This document shows positions 11,900 through 19,843 of a stretch of 20,000 nt of DNA, piece by piece (positions within the stretch are counted from its first letter, which is position 1; the number at the start of each line of letters is the position of its first letter). The notes beneath the pieces were generated by a model. That model was given only the letters and a program-made list of their open reading frames with translations, did no database searches and was not told where the DNA came from. Location: the sequence record DRR723986_3478. One strand, 5' to 3'. The translations under genes were made by a program, and so were the position numbers.

Positions 11900-12529
11900 T
11901 TAAAGCATTTCTACTTTACCTGTATGTAGACTATAAACACCACCAACAATAGTTATTTCTCCATTGTCTTCCATTTCTTGAAGAATCTGACTTTTTTGTC
12001 TAATCCTATCCATAGTTAGTCTCACATTATTCTCAACAGTTTTAGCTACAAATTCTTTGTTAGATGAGTTAGCTTCACCCTCTACTTCATCTGCAGATTT
12101 TCTTACGGCTGGCATAATATTACTCAGCATTGCGGTAATATTTCCTAATTCTACACCATCACATGCTGCTTTAACTGCACCACAACTTTCGTGACCAAGT
12201 ACCATAATCAGCTTACTTCCTGCAACATTACACGAGTATTCCAAACTTCCTAGAATGTCGGTATTTTCAAAATTACCTGCAACTCTGGCAACAAAAATAT
12301 CACCAATTGCTTGGTCTAATACTGTTTCTACAGGTACACGAGAGTCTATACAAGACAAAACAACTGCCTTTGGATATTGTCCGCCAGTGGTTTGGTTAAC
12401 AAGGGCAGAATTATCTGCACCTTCTGGTGTTCCACTAACAAATCTTTTGTTTCCTTCTAGTAAATCTGCTAAAACACTTTGTGGTGTCATTGCACTCTGA
12501 ACATCTTTTGTTACTGCTGTATTCTTCAT
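11900..12529 (-). CDS. Beta-class carbonic anhydrase (cytoplasmic)
   Basis: Zn ligands CIDSR and GHESCGAV, plus LLEGNKRF, GDIFVARVAGN and GSLEY. No signal peptide. Confidence 0.95.
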   Translation of the reverse strand: MKNTAVTKDVQSAMTPQSVLADLLEGNKRFVSGTPEGADNSALVNQTTGGQYPKAVVLSCIDSRVPVETVLDQAIGDIFVARVAGNFENTDILGSLEYSCNVAGSKLIMVLGHESCGAVKAACDGVELGNITAMLSNIMPAVRKSADEVEGEANSSNKEFVAKTVENNVRLTMDRIRQKSQILQEMEDNGEITIVGGVYSLHTGKVEML

Positions 12530-12543
12530 TTTTATATTTGTTT

Positions 12544-14406
12544 TTAGTATTCGTCTTTTACGTTTAATTTAATCCATTTTAAACATTCTTTGAATGATTT
12601 AAAAATATGTTCTTCAGAAATGAAATCTGGTATAATATCAATTCGCTCCATCATATATCTTGGTTGCCTTAGGAGATTTACAAATAGAACATCTACGTTA
12701 CGCCGTTTCAAATTCTGCAGCATATCTTCCATTGCGTATAAACCAGATTGATCCATATATTGCATTCTCCCTAATCTCATAATAACAATGGTAGCAGTAT
12801 CTGGAATCTGCGCTGATAGTGCCTGAAAATCACTGGTAGAACCAAAAAATAATGGGCCTTTTAAATGTTTAATAAATACTTCTTCTTTTAAATTTACGGG
12901 GAAATTTACTTCATCTGGCCAAGCTTCTTCTTTTAATGCTTTCACATCGGATCGCTCTGCAGTTAAGTCACCTATTTTTTTCATGAACATTAAGGATGCG
13001 ATGACTAAACCAATTCCAACCGCATAAACCAAATTCCAAAATGTTGAAAGCACTAATACAACGAGCATTATTATAACTTCAGAACTTAATTTAAGTGGTC
13101 CTAATTTTATATCCTTTGGTAAACTTGGAATGGCTTTAAGTCCTTTATAATCCATAACACCAATACCTACCGTTATTAAAATCCCGGCTAAAACAGCTGC
13201 TGGAATTTTAGATGCTAAAGGCGCTAAAGCCAATAAAATGAAAAATAATAAAACACCTGCAATCATCCCTGAAAGTCTGGTTTTTCCTCCAGCATTAATA
13301 TTAACAACTGTTCTAATTGTAGCACCTGCACCAGGAATACCACCAAAAATAGAGGCAATACTATTTCCTATGCCCTGACCTATTAATTCCTTATTTGGTT
13401 TGTGTTTGGTTTTGGTCATATTATCAGCAACAACACTGGTCAGCAAAGAATCTATAGCGCCTAACAATGATAATGTTAAGGCTGTAAAAATGTATGGTGT
13501 GATACTACCTAATTTAAACGCTGTGAAAATTTCTAATCTTGGTAATGGTAATTCTTGAGGAATTGTAGGTATGGGTTTGTAATCTAAATTTGCCAATATT
13601 GCTATAGCAGACATTATAATTAAGGCAATAAGTGTACTAGGAATTTTTGTAGTAATACGTTTAAATCCATAAATAATTAGGATAGTTCCCAATGCCAAAA
13701 TTAGTTCTAACCAATTAATATTTTGTAAAGCTCTAGGTAATAATTTTATGGCACCAACGACACTTTTTGCTTCTTTAGTCGCCAAGTTTACAGACTCCTT
13801 TTTAATATCTGCTTCTGTAATTTCTTTGGACTTTTCTATAGTTTTATTAAACTCTTCTAAAACTAATACACCATCAACAGCTTCATCTTTTATAATTTTT
13901 TCTAAAATAACCTCTTCTGCTTCAGGTCTAAATTTACTAACAAACTCATCATCCTGACTAGCGTTATATCCTAATATTGGTAAAATTTGAGTTATTAAAA
14001 TCATCACACCAATTGCAGTCATAAAACCAGAAACTACTGGGTAAGGAATATATCTAATATACTTTCCCAGACCAATTAAGCCTAAGCCAATTTGCATTAA
14101 TCCAGCTAATAGAAAGACTGTTAGAATTGCTGGTAATGCTTTTTCTACGCTTCCGCCATGTGCACCTATTAAACCAGCAATAACTACCATACTTAATGCC
14201 GTCATTGGTGCTGTAGGACCAGATATCTGTGTATTTGTTCCACCAAAAAGGGCAGCAAAAAAGCTTATAAAAATGGCTCCATAAAGACCTGCACTAGGAC
14301 CTAAACCAGATTGCACACCAAACGCTAATGCTAATGGCAATGCCACAATACCAGCTGTGATACCACCAAATGCATCTCCTTTAAAGTGAGCAAAAAAGTT
14401 CTTCAT
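12544..14406 (-). CDS. SulP/SLC26 anion transporter with STAS domain, BicA-like
   Basis: ALPLALAFG, GLYGA, QISGPTAPM, AIDSLLTSVVAD, ELIGQGIGN and PGAGATIRT. STAS domain with GPLFFGS and YMDQSG. Confidence 0.93.
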   Translation of the reverse strand: MKNFFAHFKGDAFGGITAGIVALPLALAFGVQSGLGPSAGLYGAIFISFFAALFGGTNTQISGPTAPMTALSMVVIAGLIGAHGGSVEKALPAILTVFLLAGLMQIGLGLIGLGKYIRYIPYPVVSGFMTAIGVMILITQILPILGYNASQDDEFVSKFRPEAEEVILEKIIKDEAVDGVLVLEEFNKTIEKSKEITEADIKKESVNLATKEAKSVVGAIKLLPRALQNINWLELILALGTILIIYGFKRITTKIPSTLIALIIMSAIAILANLDYKPIPTIPQELPLPRLEIFTAFKLGSITPYIFTALTLSLLGAIDSLLTSVVADNMTKTKHKPNKELIGQGIGNSIASIFGGIPGAGATIRTVVNINAGGKTRLSGMIAGVLLFFILLALAPLASKIPAAVLAGILITVGIGVMDYKGLKAIPSLPKDIKLGPLKLSSEVIIMLVVLVLSTFWNLVYAVGIGLVIASLMFMKKIGDLTAERSDVKALKEEAWPDEVNFPVNLKEEVFIKHLKGPLFFGSTSDFQALSAQIPDTATIVIMRLGRMQYMDQSGLYAMEDMLQNLKRRNVDVLFVNLLRQPRYMMERIDIIPDFISEEHIFKSFKECLKWIKLNVKDEY

Positions 14407-14499
14407 AAATTAATTATAAACTGATTTCTAAGTTACTCTAATTTTAATTGAATCATACCATTCCTGAAAAATTAAATTCGCTAACAAAACGACATCAAA

Positions 14500-15288
14500 T
14501 TAGGTTACTAACAAAGACACATTTGCCTTATTTATAAGGTCTTTAGTGAAATTTGATTTCATTATAGATTTATTATTTCTATCCAGACATAATAGGTTAA
14601 TTTTATGTTTGGAGACATAATCTGAAATAGTTTTTATTATATTCGGATTGCTTTCAAAAACAAATTCTACTTTCTCAATATCTTCTAATAATCCAGATGG
14701 TTCTTCATTTAGCGATGTATCACTTATCTTAAAGGTTTTTATTGGTTGATTTGAATAACCAATAAAATTTTCTGCTAATTCTTTATTATTAGAGTTATCT
14801 ATATTCTGAAATATACCAAGAGCCAAATCTTTATCAAACTCAATTGTATTTTCTTGACCTATGATTATAACTGATCCACTAAAGTTTTTTAGTACAAACT
14901 CTGTTATATCATCACCTGTAAAACTCAATAAATTTTGTTTTCTTTTTCCTAAAACAATAATGTCAGGTTTAGTAGCTTTTATGCGGTCCAAAATTTCTTG
15001 TTTTACATTGCCAAAAGCAAACTTATATTTAACTTTTAAATTATGGTTAGAAGCTATAGGCTCTATAAGTGATTTTAATTTTTTATCTGTAATAACAGAT
15101 TGTTCACTTATAGTTCTAACAGCAGATAATTGACTTTCACGCCCTACAATTTCTGTTGGTTTTTTAACATGAAAAAGTTCAATCTCTCCATTAATAATTT
15201 TAGAAATTTCTACGGTACTTTTTAAAAGTGTTTTTGCTGTACCTTTTAAATCTGAAAGAACCAGTATTTTATAGCTACTATTTTTCAT
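14500..15288 (-). CDS. Universal stress protein (USP), probably with two domains, the second degenerate
   Basis: KILVLSD N-terminal strand, IELFHV, FGNVKQEIL...PDIIVLGKR and G-DDITEFVLK match the USP fold. A second unit ends in INLLCL...KANVSLLV. Start is ATG 15288 or GTG 15291. Confidence 0.85.
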   Translation of the reverse strand: MKNSSYKILVLSDLKGTAKTLLKSTVEISKIINGEIELFHVKKPTEIVGRESQLSAVRTISEQSVITDKKLKSLIEPIASNHNLKVKYKFAFGNVKQEILDRIKATKPDIIVLGKRKQNLLSFTGDDITEFVLKNFSGSVIIIGQENTIEFDKDLALGIFQNIDNSNNKELAENFIGYSNQPIKTFKISDTSLNEEPSGLLEDIEKVEFVFESNPNIIKTISDYVSKHKINLLCLDRNNKSIMKSNFTKDLINKANVSLLVT

Positions 15289-15299
15289 CACTGTATCTT

Positions 15300-16892
15300 T
15301 TAAGATAATTTTGGTCTAAGTCTAAAAAACTTAAAAAAACTTTCAGGATTCTCAATAACACCTCTTTCTGAAATTAACTTTATATCAATATGCCGTTCTT
15401 TAGCTTTGATGGCAAAATCATCTAAAATTTCAATAATATCGTTATCTAAATATGTTGTTTTACGTACATCTAACTCTAAATATGTATCTCTAGGTAAACT
15501 ATATAATTCTTTTAAAATGGCACCCTTATTAAAGAAAGTTACCTCTTCCGCTAATGTCATTTTTATTTTATGCTTTCCATTACTTTTATCTTCAATATGT
15601 AAAAAATGTGAATTTTGATAACTCTTTATTAATATCACAACAATGCCAATAGCTAATCCCATACCTATTCCTTTAAGTAAATCGGTAAATACTATACCTA
15701 AAACTGTTACTGTAAATGGTATAAATTGCTTCCAGCCGAGCTCATACATCTTAATAAACAACGATGGCTTTGCTAGTTTATATCCTACTATTAATAAAAC
15801 AGCAGCAAGAACTGATAGTGGAATCATGTTAAGTAGTTTTGGTATAAGCATTACTGATATCAACAATAAGAAACCATGTATTATAGCTGACATTTTACTT
15901 CTACCACCAGATTGAATATTTGCTGAACTTCTTACAATTACCTGAGTTATTGGTAATCCACCTATTAAGCCAGAAATTATATTACCTGTACCTTGAGCTA
16001 ATAGTTCTCTATTTGTTGGTGTTACATTTTTATGTGGATCTAATTTATCTGTCGCTTCAACACATAATAGCGTTTCTAAACTCGCAACTAGCGCAATTGT
16101 GAAGGCTACAATCCATATTTCCGGGTTAGTAATTTGACTAAAATTTGGAAAACTAAACTGTCCTAAAAAAGAATTAATACCATCTGGTACCGGGACACTT
16201 ACTAAGTGAGAAGAATCTATACTTAAGGTCTCATTTGACTGCGTTAAAACATAAAATATAATACCTACAACTACGGCAACCAAAGGTCCTTGCACAACCT
16301 GAAAGAATTTTCCTTTTTTAGAAAGCACATTTCCCCAAAGTATTAAAATACCCAAAGAAATAAAGCCAATTAGCGCAGAACCAAGCTTTATATAATTGAT
16401 GGAATTAATGATTTCTGAAAACGTATTTTCACCATCTACTTGAATAAATGCAAAGTCGCCTTCAGGGTCAGCATCATACCCAAAGAAATGAGGTATCTGT
16501 TTTAAAATAATTATAATTCCTATTCCTGTCAACATACCTTTTATAACTGATGACGGGAAATAATAACCAATAATACCTGCTTTTAGAAAACCAAATACTA
16601 GTTGAATAATACCACCTAAAACAACGGCTAATAAAAAGTTTTGATAACTACCCAGAGTTGCAATTGCTGCTAAAACAATCGCAGCTAAACCTGCAGCAGG
16701 GCCACTAACACCAATTTTAGAACCACTAAGTGAACCAACCACAATACCACCAATAATACCAGCTATTAAACCTGAAAATAATGGTGCTCCACTGGCTAAT
16801 GCAATACCTAAACATAATGGTAGTGCTACAAAGAATACGACAATACTCGCTGGTATGTCATTTTTTAAAGTTTTAAACATAGAAAATTTCAT
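15300..16892 (-). CDS. SulP/SLC26 anion transporter with short STAS-like C-terminus
   Basis: VALPLCLGIALASGAP, VSGPAAGL, ASLETLL, NRELLAQGTGN, PITQVIVRSSAN. The start could be ATG 16880 (MFKTLKND) instead. Confidence 0.93.
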   Translation of the reverse strand: MKFSMFKTLKNDIPASIVVFFVALPLCLGIALASGAPLFSGLIAGIIGGIVVGSLSGSKIGVSGPAAGLAAIVLAAIATLGSYQNFLLAVVLGGIIQLVFGFLKAGIIGYYFPSSVIKGMLTGIGIIIILKQIPHFFGYDADPEGDFAFIQVDGENTFSEIINSINYIKLGSALIGFISLGILILWGNVLSKKGKFFQVVQGPLVAVVVGIIFYVLTQSNETLSIDSSHLVSVPVPDGINSFLGQFSFPNFSQITNPEIWIVAFTIALVASLETLLCVEATDKLDPHKNVTPTNRELLAQGTGNIISGLIGGLPITQVIVRSSANIQSGGRSKMSAIIHGFLLLISVMLIPKLLNMIPLSVLAAVLLIVGYKLAKPSLFIKMYELGWKQFIPFTVTVLGIVFTDLLKGIGMGLAIGIVVILIKSYQNSHFLHIEDKSNGKHKIKMTLAEEVTFFNKGAILKELYSLPRDTYLELDVRKTTYLDNDIIEILDDFAIKAKERHIDIKLISERGVIENPESFFKFFRLRPKLS

Positions 16893-16896
16893 TTTT

Positions 16897-16918
16897 GTTA
16901 ATGAGGAATCTCATTAAC
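16897..16918. promoter_or_regulatory. Perfect inverted repeat directly upstream of the first SulP start
   Basis: GTTAATGAG-gaat-CTCATTAAC: 9-bp stem, 4-nt loop. Function unknown. Confidence 0.55.
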
Positions 16919-16970
16919 CATTTTTTTAATTAATTGTAATTGGACAATAGCAGTCCTTAAAAAGAGAAAA

Positions 16971-17264
16971 TTAAATTAATTCGGGAGGCGGAAAAATTTG
17001 GTTTAAATGCGGCTTTGCATAGGCCTTGAAAATGTAAGCCACGTTGTGCGCATTTTTACCGTCCAAAATAGAAGCTTCATGATTGTTTGTTGTTGCTTCG
17101 AAAAGAAGCTTAAAACTCTCATTTTCTTCTTCTTCATTCATTCCAAAGAAATAAGTAACATCAATAGAATCATCCATCGTCATAATTAACGATGGTGCAG
17201 AAATAACACCCATAAATAAAATGGTGAAAAAAATAGCAATATTTTGACGTAACTTCATTTTCAT
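16971..17264 (-). CDS. Small membrane-anchored/exported hypothetical protein with C-terminal PPP motif; candidate leader (arrest) peptide
   Basis: 97-aa ORF co-oriented with the cluster. N-terminal basic plus hydrophobic segment, EEEENE patch, ends PHLNQIFPPPELI. Start may be 17264 or 17258. Confidence 0.75.
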   Translation of the reverse strand: MKMKLRQNIAIFFTILFMGVISAPSLIMTMDDSIDVTYFFGMNEEEENESFKLLFEATTNNHEASILDGKNAHNVAYIFKAYAKPHLNQIFPPPELI

Positions 17265-17307
17265 AAAGCTCTAAAATACTATTTCCTCCTTAACTTTTTG
17301 TTAAATA

Positions 17308-18069
17308 TTATAAAAAACCGTTTAAGAGTTTAATATCACTGGCAGGAATCCAACCTGTAGAATTATCTGATAACTGTATTTTTTTCCAGTCCTCATAAGA
17401 TTCCAAGACCTGCACCTTAGTACCTTCGTGTAGTCTAAAAACTTCTTCACTTTTTTGATTAGGGTCTGCTTTCACCTTACTTTCTTGTACAAATACAATT
17501 GCTGGTCTATCTTTTTTGTCTAATCTATCTTTTTGAAAAGCCATTAATACTGAGAAAAACGCCATAAATAAGCTTAAAACACTTACAATAAAAGCAATGC
17601 GTTTTCTTGAGGTTGCATAGGCAAAATGATACATTAGAAATAAAAACACAAACAGTATAACTCCTGTAACAGCAGTTTTTGCCCAAGTATCTGCAGTTGC
17701 CGTATTAACAATATTATTTAAGATTCTCCTAAATCCTACTTCAGGTACTTTATCAATAGCATCTACAGTCATATTCTGAGCAAATCTTAAATTGTTTTTT
17801 ATGTCTTCATCATTAGGATCTAGTTGTAACGCTTTTTCATAATAAAATATGCTTGGTGCAATATTATTAAGTTTATAATGGGCATTCCCTAAATTGAAAT
17901 AGAGCTCAGAAGAATGTACACCAGAATTTAAAATAGATTTATAGTTGTCAATAGCTTCTGCATATTTACCATCATTATACAATGAATTTGCTTTCTCAAA
18001 TGCATCATTAGCCTGAGAAAACCCAAGGGATGAAAAACAAATTATGAAAAGAATTAATACTACTCTCAT
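17308..18069 (-). CDS. batE: BatE: TPR plus SH3-domain protein of the Bacteroidota aerotolerance operon
   Basis: Signal peptide, TPR repeats (YFNLGNAHYK, YYEKALQLDP), two TM helices and a C-terminal SH3b-like region (LHEGTKVQV...W...GWI). Directly downstream of batD. Confidence 0.92.
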   Translation of the reverse strand: MRVVLILFIICFSSLGFSQANDAFEKANSLYNDGKYAEAIDNYKSILNSGVHSSELYFNLGNAHYKLNNIAPSIFYYEKALQLDPNDEDIKNNLRFAQNMTVDAIDKVPEVGFRRILNNIVNTATADTWAKTAVTGVILFVFLFLMYHFAYATSRKRIAFIVSVLSLFMAFFSVLMAFQKDRLDKKDRPAIVFVQESKVKADPNQKSEEVFRLHEGTKVQVLESYEDWKKIQLSDNSTGWIPASDIKLLNGFL

Positions 18070-18070
18070 G

Positions 18071-19843
18071 TTACCTTATTTGTTTATCTATTTGAGATAT
18101 TGTCCTTGCAGATTTATCATAATCATTCTGCATCGTCACCTGTGTTATTGGTGTATATCGCGCTAATTCACAACTTTCTAAAATTGAAATAAACTCTTTA
18201 ACAACACTCTCTTCGACATTTCTTTTTAATAACAAACTAGTTATTTTCTCCTTATTAAAATCCCTCGTTTCAATATTTAGTTTAGCCTTTAAATAATTAT
18301 GTAATGCTTTTTCTAAAGCTACATAAAAAGCTTCTTTTTTGCCTAAGGCTTTCTTTGCTTCACTCAAATATTTCTTTGCTAATCGATCTGCTCTTCTTAT
18401 TCGGTTACCAACGACATCTGCATCGCGCTTATCTTTGTTTTTTCTGATAATAATTGCCAGTGGAATAAATAAAAATGGCACTAATAATAGTATCCAAAAT
18501 AAATTAGATTTAAAAAAGTTGGATTCTGAAATATTTGTTAGATCAGCATCGGTTTTAATAAAACTAAACGTATCAGAATTTGGCCTTACCGTTTGCTTTA
18601 TACCCGCATGGTTAGTATTTGAATTATTATTGGCCTTGGCATTAGGACCTTCTATAACATCTATAACAATTTCGTCTGAGCTTATACGCTTATAACTTTT
18701 TGTTTTAATATCAAAATATGAAAAGGACATTGAAGGTATAGGATATTTGCCTTTATATTGTGGCACAATAGTATAGGTATCTGAAATACTGCCTTGCATA
18801 CCAGCCAAATTAGTGCGCACATTTTCTTTATGTTCAGGTTCATAAACCTCCAAAGAACTTGGTACTGTGAGTTTCGGAAGTTCAAAAAGTTTAAGATTTC
18901 CTTTACCTGTAACTTCAATTTTTGCTTGTAACGATTCACCTGCATTTAATTGTGACTTAGACGTTGTAACTTTAAAATCAAAGTCACCAACAGCACCTTT
19001 AAAATCAGCTGGCACATCTGTTTCTGGCAATGGTTTAACATCTATAGTTCTGCTTCCTGCGGTAACAGTCTTAGGCACCTTTGTCATAATAGGGCGACCA
19101 AAAATGTCTGTTCTGTTTGTTGGCACTTCTACCGTTATATCTAAAACAAGAGGTTCTAACTTCAACTTACCTGTTTTTTGAGGATAGAGTACCGTTTTTC
19201 TTAGAACAACATATCTGTAATCTTCACCTTTATACTGACCTTTTTGAATATTTAAACCTTTTATTTCAATATTTTGACTCCAAAAATCATTATATCTTGG
19301 ATTATCTTTTTCTCTCCAATTACTAACACCTGTTTCAGAGGATACGTATAATTTGTAAACCACAGTTATGGCCTCATTTAAATATGGATTTGTTTTAGAA
19401 ACCTCTGCAACCAAATGAATATTCTCAGAGGCAATATCTGATACATCTGAACGACCATTTGGCCTGTCTACTGCTGCTGTAACATTAACCGAAATAGGGA
19501 AGGTTTTATAGGTTTCTCCTTCTATTTCAATAATAGCTTGCTTAATAGTGAATTTTCCGCGTTTTTTTGGTGCTAAAAAATAACTGTAGGTTTTTTTATA
19601 GGTTCGTTTGCCGTTAATCCATTTATTACTTACTGAGGTATTTGGTCCACCAACAACTGTAAAATCACTAAAACTTGGCGGAACAAAGTTGTCGCCATCT
19701 TGATTCATTTCAAAATCAATTCGAAGGCGTTCATTAACTCCTAATTTCTTTTTACTCACCTTAGCCTCAAACTTTACTTGTGCAAATGAAACTGAAGTTA
19801 AGACTAAAAAGAAAGTCAGTAATATGTGAAATCTGTTTTTCAT
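18071..19843 (-). CDS. batD: BatD family protein
   Basis: Signal peptide, repeated beta-sandwich BatD segments (GAVGDF, GKGNL, FSYFD), TM helix near residue 450-470 and a C-terminal CELARYTP region. Lies between batC and batE. Confidence 0.92.
   Translation of the reverse strand: MKNRFHILLTFFLVLTSVSFAQVKFEAKVSKKKLGVNERLRIDFEMNQDGDNFVPPSFSDFTVVGGPNTSVSNKWINGKRTYKKTYSYFLAPKKRGKFTIKQAIIEIEGETYKTFPISVNVTAAVDRPNGRSDVSDIASENIHLVAEVSKTNPYLNEAITVVYKLYVSSETGVSNWREKDNPRYNDFWSQNIEIKGLNIQKGQYKGEDYRYVVLRKTVLYPQKTGKLKLEPLVLDITVEVPTNRTDIFGRPIMTKVPKTVTAGSRTIDVKPLPETDVPADFKGAVGDFDFKVTTSKSQLNAGESLQAKIEVTGKGNLKLFELPKLTVPSSLEVYEPEHKENVRTNLAGMQGSISDTYTIVPQYKGKYPIPSMSFSYFDIKTKSYKRISSDEIVIDVIEGPNAKANNNSNTNHAGIKQTVRPNSDTFSFIKTDADLTNISESNFFKSNLFWILLLVPFLFIPLAIIIRKNKDKRDADVVGNRIRRADRLAKKYLSEAKKALGKKEAFYVALEKALHNYLKAKLNIETRDFNKEKITSLLLKRNVEESVVKEFISILESCELARYTPITQVTMQNDYDKSARTISQIDKQIR

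Follow-up and report, generated by a model that had tools for sequence, protein, structure and literature searches.

A conserved small open reading frame ahead of a SulP and carbonic anhydrase operon in Flavobacteriaceae: a candidate pausing leader peptide

What is the role of a small open reading frame (ORF) that stands at the head of an operon for anion transporters and a carbonic anhydrase (CA)? The question is raised by sequence record DRR723986_3478, a stretch of 20,000 nucleotides that was analyzed as a whole and is called the window below. An ORF of 97 codons on its minus strand precedes the gene for a SulP transporter (SulP1), and the original prediction was that it acts in cis as a leader peptide. 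Computational analysis of the ORF, its relatives and the spacer behind it led us to favor the same reading, with a probability of about 0.5. The ORF may encode a pausing leader peptide of the CutF or MifM kind, in which a pause at a C-terminal PPP(E/D) motif would reshape the spacer and set the translation of SulP. Coordinates of all features are collected in Table 1.

The elements on which the prediction had been built are present in the sequence: a hydrophobic N-terminal segment, an acidic EEEENE patch, three prolines encoded three codons before the stop, a pyrimidine tract (TTTTCTCTTTTT) after it, and a distance of 78 nt between the ORF and SulP1. The product of 97 amino acids reads MKMKLRQNIAIFFTILFMGVISAPSLIM...NEEEENE...KPHLNQIFPPPELI. 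A basic N-terminus is followed by a 20-residue hydrophobic stretch, DDSIDVT, NEEEENE and a C-terminus that ends in ...FKAYAKPHLNQIFPPPELI. After the three proline codons come E, L, I and TAA. The 78 nt are counted from the stop to the first ATG of SulP1 (16892), and 90 nt lie between the stop and the ATG at 16880, which opens a conserved MFK N-terminus. The longest ORF of SulP1 begins MKFSMFK and its relatives share the MFK start; judged by this comparison, the true start of SulP1 may lie 12 nt 3' of the longest-ORF start.

The product matches no Pfam or NCBIfam profile. A word-based search yielded 19 relatives, and an exhaustive profile-free search yielded 168 cluster representatives at E <= 1e-3, 47 of them at E <= 1e-10. 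When 138 family members were compared with Pfam, no match beyond chance was obtained, and none to DUF2946 at E <= 1. By sequence comparison, the ORF represents a real protein family, and one that is new in sequence since no profile matches it. A protein-language-model search placed it nearest to clusters named CzcI, DUF6660 and 'DUF2946 domain-containing', with scores of 0.87-0.88; because such scores are below the level of reliable matches, we take these neighbors as a lead only. With one genome scanned per species, 151 stretches that encode the family were identified, and the best 80 were kept (L001-L080); together with the window they make up the 81 ORFs or loci counted below. Nearly all of the 80 are labelled as genera of Flavobacteriaceae (Winogradskyella, Lacinutrix, Olleya, Mariniflexile, Psychroserpens) or as unclassified flavobacterial bins. 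Closest to the window is locus L001, from a Winogradskyella bin: its ORF is 79% identical to that of the window, and its neighbor genes are 87-94% identical. Among 401 sampled Flavobacteriaceae genomes, 172 have a family match, in single copy in 171 and in two copies in one.

Conservation is found in the helix, in DDSxDxS, in EEEE and in KPHLNLIxPPP(E/D). In 20 close sequences, residues D31, D32, D35, E44, E45, E47, P85, N88, I90 and P92-94 are invariant. When 138 sequences with identities as low as about 25% are compared, invariance is limited to P93 and P94, and at least 90% of the sequences keep P24, E44-46, Y82 and P92. PPP is followed by E (74 cases) or D (7 cases) in 81/81 ORFs, always 3-5 residues from the stop and with 2-4 more residues after the E or D; this retention places the layout of the ORF beyond chance. 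Among the 150 cluster representatives listed, PPP is found in 134, and xPP followed by E, D or K occupies the same place in seven; of the other nine, one reads on past SPP and eight are fragments or have a different C-terminus. In 20 distant loci (profile E of ~4e-9 to 1e-11), an ORF ending in PP was recovered by pattern in 16, of which 14 have PPP, L095 has QPPQL and L100 has SPPD. The pattern recovered no such ORF in L093, L097, L098 and L099, where the profile match and the downstream SulP or CA gene are present.

The codons behind these residues are not fixed. Across the 81 ORFs, the first and third prolines draw on all four proline codons and the second on three, and codon choice varies synonymously along the whole of KPHLNLI. 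Selection in the C-terminal stretch is hence on the peptide and not on the RNA. Distances are constrained as well: in 188 proteins, the first EE and the last proline are separated by 48-56 residues (5-95% range) through a linker of unconserved sequence, and the proline of the helix lies 68-76 residues from the last proline. An AlphaFold2 (AF2) model made with the 138-sequence alignment is confident only for a helix at residues 5-30 (predicted local distance difference test, pLDDT, 88-95 at residues 11-30); the rest is coil, with pLDDT < 50 at residues 54-74. No conserved cysteine appears in the alignments of 20 and 138 sequences, and the protein of the window has no cysteine at all. The expectation that the hydrophobic segment, the acidic patch and the terminal PPP would be conserved at fixed spacing, with a linker free in sequence, is thus borne out in the sets of 20, 138 and 188 sequences.

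Linkage to SulP and CA genes, also foreseen, is complete in the loci examined. A SulP or CA gene lies 3' of the ORF on the same strand in 80/80 loci, within 300 nt in 77 of them, where the first such gene is SulP1 (71 loci), CA (4) or SulP2 (2). In the remaining three it lies beyond 300 nt and within 1500 nt; in two of these, L003 and L007, a secreted protein of 224 residues is encoded between the ORF and SulP2. This intervening protein (6355-7029 in L003 and 6385-7059 in L007, both Winogradskyella) has a signal-like N-terminus and begins MFKT. In the distant loci, SulP1, SulP2 or CA is found just downstream in 20/20. On the other side of the ORF, BatE is the direct neighbor in 60/80 loci, and the order Bat, small ORF, SulP is seen in 60/80 loci and in 19/20 distant ones. 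Because BatE adjoins the ORF in only 60/80 loci, the constant partner is the SulP/CA operon and not the Bat genes; and because the next gene may be SulP1, CA or SulP2, the ORF tracks the 5' end of the operon rather than one protein.

The region ahead of the ORF harbors a promoter-like box. An exact copy of TAnnTTTG, the -7 motif of Bacteroidetes promoters, occurs 14-31 nt upstream of the ORF start in 64/81 loci, mostly as TATATTTG, and in the downstream spacer in 2/81 only. The ORF therefore has the appearance of a first cistron in the SulP/CA operon, as a promoter-like box precedes it and hardly ever occurs in the spacer. The window is one of the 17 loci without an exact copy and has a box with one mismatch. 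The box and the ATG are 6 nt apart in the window and seven relatives, a distance that suggests a nearly leaderless mRNA for the ORF. In most loci, including ones that lack BatE, a conserved TTTAACA occurs some 20 nt 5' of the -7 box; it may serve as a -33-like element or be recognized by a regulator. A sigma-70 scan gave scores at the level of shuffled sequence, and that promoter type is the wrong one for the phylum Bacteroidetes. AGGAGG occurs at 17285-17290, about 20 nt upstream of the ORF ATG, and is not conserved in the nearest relative, L001. Ribosomes of Bacteroidia make no use of Shine-Dalgarno sequences.

Metatranscriptome contigs were also inspected. No contig spans the ORF together with SulP1, and coverage of the stretch has gaps, so the contigs are uninformative on co-transcription. 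Two studies provide one short contig each over the ORF (16986-17237 and 16990-17254; depth 2.2-2.6), and both contigs end inside the PPP codons with no loose end. Ends of RNA cannot be read from contigs, and DNA may have been carried over; these end points therefore hint only weakly that the RNA ends or is cleaved where the pause is proposed. The DNA runs contain 0.97 of the sampled words of 16500-17500.

The spacer between the ORF and SulP1 is structured. In 69 loci, the spacer without its last 12 nt folds more stably than dinucleotide shuffles (mean z of -2.64; z < -2 in 49/69 loci), and the window reaches z = -4.0. Two hairpins are found repeatedly, with sequences that differ between loci. 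Hairpin 1, absent from the original prediction, has stems that vary between loci (GGAC/GTCC, GGGC/GCCC, GGCT/AGCC), and U-rich sequence 5' of it is common among relatives. Hairpin 2 has 9 pairs, 8 of them with compensatory changes when RNAalifold is run on 23 sequences (90.3% of cells paired). That the spacer is structured is thus supported by both the z statistics and the covariation of hairpin 2. The hairpin originally noted near the SulP start does exist, as the 9-bp stem of hairpin 2, but it leaves the start codon uncovered and ends 17 nt before the ATG of MFK. Across loci its end lies 15-20 nt before the start codon, which indicates that hairpin 2 does not mask the SulP1 start. Rfam gave seven matches, all far below gathering scores, which were taken as chance. 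An intrinsic terminator after the ORF was considered and rejected, as neither hairpin has a U tract 3' of it on the mRNA strand. On the plus strand, hairpin 2 followed by CATTTTTTTA scores as terminator-like, and no convergent gene is found there.

A different kind of pairing was noticed by eye and then computed. It joins the 3'-terminal codons of the ORF with the sequence around the SulP1 start, and many lineages have the required complementarity. Three classes can be distinguished. In 27 loci, CATATTATAA, which includes the ORF stop codon, pairs with TTATAATATG, which includes the SulP1 ATG. Another class, of about 16 loci, joins GAATTCATTT, made of the E-F-I codons that directly follow PPP, to AAATGAATTT, which lies 5-15 nt ahead of the ATG. 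The pairing of GATTTTAT with ATAAAATC is found in three loci. The minimum-energy fold contains at least 6 pairs between tail and start region in 55/69 loci, compared with 32/69 when an upstream ORF segment is swapped in and 33% when tails are shuffled. Duplexes of cognate tails and starts have a mean of -7.9 kcal/mol versus -5.8 for non-cognate ones. For the structures named by hand, 91.7% (class 1) and 86.5% (class 2) of cells are paired, versus 30-52% with slid partners, percentages that are inflated by the relatedness of the sequences. When RNAalifold was applied to 49 spacers together and to 25 class-2 spacers, the MAFFT alignments were too gapped and no consensus structure was obtained; the long-range helix was for this reason named by hand, and the pair counts are biased toward it. 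The helix is kept across spacers as long as 220 and 257 nt (L025 and L036).

The effect of a ribosome on this pairing was simulated by holding bases -12 to +15 around the last proline codon unpaired. Under such conditions, the mean unpaired probability of the start region rises from 0.43 to 0.53. The gain in accessibility exceeds 0.15 in 25/69 loci with the ribosome on the last proline, versus 1/69 when it is placed 15 codons upstream.

By analogy, the anatomy of the ORF and its spacer is that of monitoring-type arrest peptides, and the mechanism that we favor can be outlined as follows. Transcription would start just upstream of the ORF, and the hydrophobic N-terminal segment would target the nascent chain to the membrane. 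When the ribosome arrives at PPP(E/D), 3-5 codons before the stop, peptide-bond formation would slow down. At that moment the preceding ~15 conserved residues (FKxYxKPHLNLIx) would sit in the exit tunnel, and the DDSxDxS...EEEE patch, about 50 residues back, would be outside the ribosome and at the membrane. The paused ribosome would hold the 3' end of the ORF single-stranded and reshape the ~90-nt spacer, and in many lineages the SulP start region would be freed from its pairing with the last ORF codons. A freed start region would in turn permit higher SulP translation, as initiation in Bacteroidia is tuned by mRNA structure without Shine-Dalgarno sequences. The length of the pause might be set by the fate of the exported acidic part, either pulled during export or bound to a cue, and/or by EF-P. 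Every dynamic step of this outline is inferred, from the pause and how it is modulated to the nature of the cue and whether SulP output goes up or down.

Several observations weigh against this reading. The window itself fits the pairing scheme poorly: like most Winogradskyella-like loci it lacks a predicted helix between tail and start, and its minimum-energy fold has no such pairs, the tail being paired instead with the region behind hairpin 1. Read by eye from alignment rows, the window's tail and start region pair at 8/10 positions with two internal mismatches, and its longest complementary run (7) lies elsewhere. The simulated ribosome raises accessibility of its start region only from 0.47 to 0.50. 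In loci where CA comes first, complementary runs measure only 5-7 nt. The helix controls are high in such AT-rich sequence (32/69; 33%), and covariation is small, with one compensatory pair in each of helix classes 1 and 2. A ribosome on the last proline would reach approximately the stop codon and not hairpins 1 and 2. The strong conservation of the helix and of the acidic patch would also fit a protein that acts in trans. A further point concerns EF-P, which normally relieves stalling at PPP: efp was found above the family cut-off in 3/3 family-carrying relatives checked. Because EF-P is encoded in relatives, PPP alone need not arrest the ribosome, and a long arrest would need either the upstream motif or a regulated input. 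Finally, the proline-rich tail of CutF alone caused no detectable arrest (PMC9973294). Altogether, the idea of a cis-acting leader has gained from the family, the SulP/CA link, the conservation, the spacing, the promoter box and the structured spacer; what weakens it is the pairing of tail and start, clear in many relatives and degenerate in the window, together with a hairpin that leaves the SulP start uncovered and the presence of EF-P.

Other explanations were weighed against the same body of evidence. One is that the open frame is due to chance and that the real element is a non-coding RNA leader. A structured spacer and the lack of a protein family match would suit this view, but amino acids are conserved while codons vary, 168 cluster representatives are found at E <= 1e-3, the reading frame is open in all 80 loci, and no Rfam family reaches its threshold. 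A chance ORF was accordingly discarded as scarcely credible. If the peptide is real, it might work in trans, as a small exported or membrane-anchored protein that serves SulP or CA as an accessory or regulator, or whose PPP tail docks to a partner such as the SH3 domain of BatE. Under this view PPP(E/D) would serve for binding, and the hairpins of the spacer would be nothing unusual for an operon. We regard this explanation as possible, if somewhat unlikely. It accounts for the residue-level conservation of the helix, DDSxDxS and EEEE, for selection that acts on the peptide and not on the codons, for a single-copy family that always adjoins SulP/CA, and for the presence of BatE with SH3_3 upstream in 60/80 loci. 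The other 20 loci, however, have no BatE neighbor, and no fold beyond one helix is predicted even with 138 sequences. A protein acting in trans would also leave unexplained why the distance from the conserved motif to the stop is always 3-5 residues, why the ORF occupies the 5' end of the operon whichever gene comes next, why the only promoter-like box belongs to it, and why its last codons pair with the start region of the next gene in many lineages. A complex predicted for SulP1 and the small protein had a score of 0.00, obtained without controls or alignments, which counts neither for nor against binding.

The RNA evidence can also be read without any sensing. Slight slowing at PPP might keep the spacer open constitutively, so that SulP1 is translated in proportion to the ORF, and the sole task of the exported N-terminus would be to deliver the mRNA to the membrane for insertion of the transporters. 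Such a coupling draws on the same pairing and accessibility data as the leader peptide, agrees with the presence of EF-P, under which a long arrest is not expected, and suits an operon whose downstream products are membrane proteins. It does not explain the near-invariant acidic patch, the 48-56 residues between the patch and the last proline, or the conservation of ~15 residues before PPP, and in loci where CA comes first the gene next to the ORF encodes a soluble enzyme. We therefore consider it unlikely.

Within the reading of a cis-acting pausing leader, a further, quite improbable speculation is that the leader is a co-translational sensor of the energized or ionic state of the membrane, which sets the amounts of SulP and CA. 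The spacing of 48-56 residues would put the acidic patch at the translocon or membrane at the moment of the pause. The membrane potential, or external pH or cations that alter the charge of the patch, would pull the patch across and end the pause. The duration of the pause would thus convert membrane potential, alkalinity or Na+/Ca2+ status into output of the SulP bicarbonate transporter and CA. A precedent is mentioned in a review (PMC6028853, reporting Ismail et al. 2015): membrane potential pulls acidic nascent segments, enough to release SecM arrest. Because the potential pulls acidic segments and the patch lies about 50 residues from the pause, the leader could sense membrane potential, pH or cations. 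If true, it would be a nascent-chain electrometer for inorganic-carbon and pH homeostasis, present in about four in ten sampled Flavobacteriaceae genomes.

The operon downstream of the ORF and the Bat genes upstream of it were assigned with Pfam and NCBIfam. The best NCBIfam similarity of SulP2 is to BicA, below the BicA cut-off. The Usp profile covers only residues 8-144 of the 263-residue Usp protein, and SulP1 has no Pfam STAS match, unlike SulP2. The C-terminal halves of the Usp protein and of SulP1 may be divergent copies of Usp and STAS domains, respectively.

Table 1. Features of the ORF, its spacer and the neighboring genes (positions in the window).
Feature	Position	Strand or place	Basis
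Leader ORF (candidate), 97 codons, unannotated family	16971..17264	-	sequence, homologue searches
Hydrophobic export/anchor segment, residues 9-28, with near-invariant Pro24	17181..17240	-	AF2 helix, alignment
Acidic region DDSIDVT...NEEEENE, residues 31-49	17118..17174	-	alignments (20 and 138 sequences)
C-terminal motif FKxYxKPHLNxIxPPPE, residues 79-95, candidate arrest sequence	16980..17030	-	alignments
PPP codons CCG CCT CCC, proposed pause site	16983..16991	-	sequence; conservation of P92-P94
Pyrimidine tract TTTTCTCTTTTT, directly 3' of the stop	16959..16970	-	sequence
Hairpin 1, GGAC/GTCC	16942..16956	-	folding, relatives
Hairpin 2, 9 bp, GTTAATGAG-ATTC-CTCATTAAC, ending 17 nt before the conserved SulP1 ATG	16897..16918	-	folding, covariation
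SulP1 initiation region: first ATG 16892-16890, conserved MFK ATG 16880-16878	16878..16892	-	sequence, relatives
-7-like box TATTTTAG, one mismatch to TAnnTTTG, 6 nt before the ORF ATG	17271..17278	-	motif scan
TTTAACA, conserved, putative -33-like element, directly after the BatE stop	17299..17305	-	comparison of loci
Operon of SulP1, Usp, SulP2-STAS and beta carbonic anhydrase	11900..16892	-	Pfam/NCBIfam
SulP1 (530 aa)	15300-16892	-	Pfam/NCBIfam
Usp protein (263 residues)	14500-15291	-	Pfam/NCBIfam
SulP2 with STAS	12544-14406	-	Pfam/NCBIfam
Beta carbonic anhydrase	11900-12529	-	Pfam/NCBIfam
BatE-type protein (TPR / two-helix / SH3_3)	17308-18069	directly upstream of ORF	Pfam
BatD	18071-19843	upstream of ORF	Pfam

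To our knowledge, the monitoring-type arrest peptides described so far control export machinery or metal handling. If the leader reading is true, anion and bicarbonate transport and carbonic anhydrase would join the targets of nascent-chain regulation, and such regulation would extend to Bacteroidia, with an initiation that depends on mRNA structure and not on Shine-Dalgarno pairing. It would also bear on the inorganic-carbon uptake and pH balance of marine Flavobacteriaceae, which are major degraders of algal carbon and in whose sampled genomes the family is found in 172 of 401. The family offers a compact, testable system made up of a single promoter, an ORF of 97 codons and a spacer of ~90 nt, and natural variants either have or lack the masking helix. 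A literature search that left most subscription journals and supplements outside its reach found no description of a leader peptide before a bicarbonate or SulP transporter.

How does the ORF compare with known systems? Its closest counterparts in layout are CutF of Rhodobacter capsulatus and CruR of Bordetella pertussis, which are likewise small ORFs directly upstream of the regulated gene (PMC9973294). CutF is described there with a Sec signal, a CxxxC copper motif, a C-terminal proline-rich motif and a stem-loop that masks the next gene. CutF and CruR share with our ORF an export signal, an exported motif that putatively faces a ligand, a proline-rich C-terminal motif and a structured spacer. 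There are also differences. CutF and CruR belong to DUF2946, which none of 138 family members matches; their CxxxC is replaced here by an acidic DDSxDxS...EEEE patch with no cysteine; copper or metal genes lie downstream of them, whereas anion transporters and carbonic anhydrase follow the ORF; and the host phylum in our case does not use Shine-Dalgarno sequences.

Arrest at a related motif has been reported for uA_LPPP of Planctomycetota, for which PMC10987492 describes a toeprint stall with the P-site on the third LPPP codon and a need for the Leu and Pro residues. uA_LPPP resembles the ORF in having an N-terminal signal, a diverse N-terminal part and xPPP in the last 15 residues; in our family xPPP is within the last 8 residues. 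Unlike the ORF, uA_LPPP lies upstream of secA, monitors protein export and belongs to another phylum. Moreover, it has Leu before PPP, while the family has Ser or Phe there and Leu at -3.

MifM, SecM and VemP combine an export or insertion segment, a linker and a C-terminal arrest motif (PMC12992588, PMC9973294), an architecture that the ORF shares with PPP(E/D) as its candidate arrest motif, and their arrest is released by pulling force on the nascent chain. The downstream start is masked in these systems by an RNA structure that the stalled ribosome opens; the masking helix is weak in the window. The genes that they regulate encode export machinery (SecA, YidC2, SecDF2), and their arrest motifs are unrelated to the motif of our family. 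A regulated gene for export or insertion machinery, the mark of a monitoring substrate, is not what follows the ORF, where SulP, Usp, SulP-STAS and beta-CA are found. The RAPP-like peptides (ApcA, ApdA, ApdP and the RQH family) carry R/Q/H-A/G-P-P/G, a motif different from the I-[SF]-P-P-P-[ED] of our family. Small ORFs with RAPP or RGPP are located upstream of genes of many functions (PMC12992588).

A parallel of another sort is provided by MgtL and MgtP of Salmonella, in which the speed of translation at proline codons sets the expression of an ion transporter through alternative RNA structures (see also PMC8092293). These leaders are very short and cytoplasmic and act largely by transcription attenuation, in contrast with the 97 codons and the export segment of the ORF. 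With EF-P-dependent polyproline sequences the ORF shares three proline codons in the window and an efp gene in 3/3 relatives. In Flavobacterium johnsoniae, initiation is tuned by mRNA structure without Shine-Dalgarno pairing (PMC6847099). A regulatory pausing leader with an export signal is a known kind of element; what is new here is the sequence family, the conserved acidic module, the proposed target, namely a bicarbonate-type SulP with carbonic anhydrase, and the setting in Bacteroidia.

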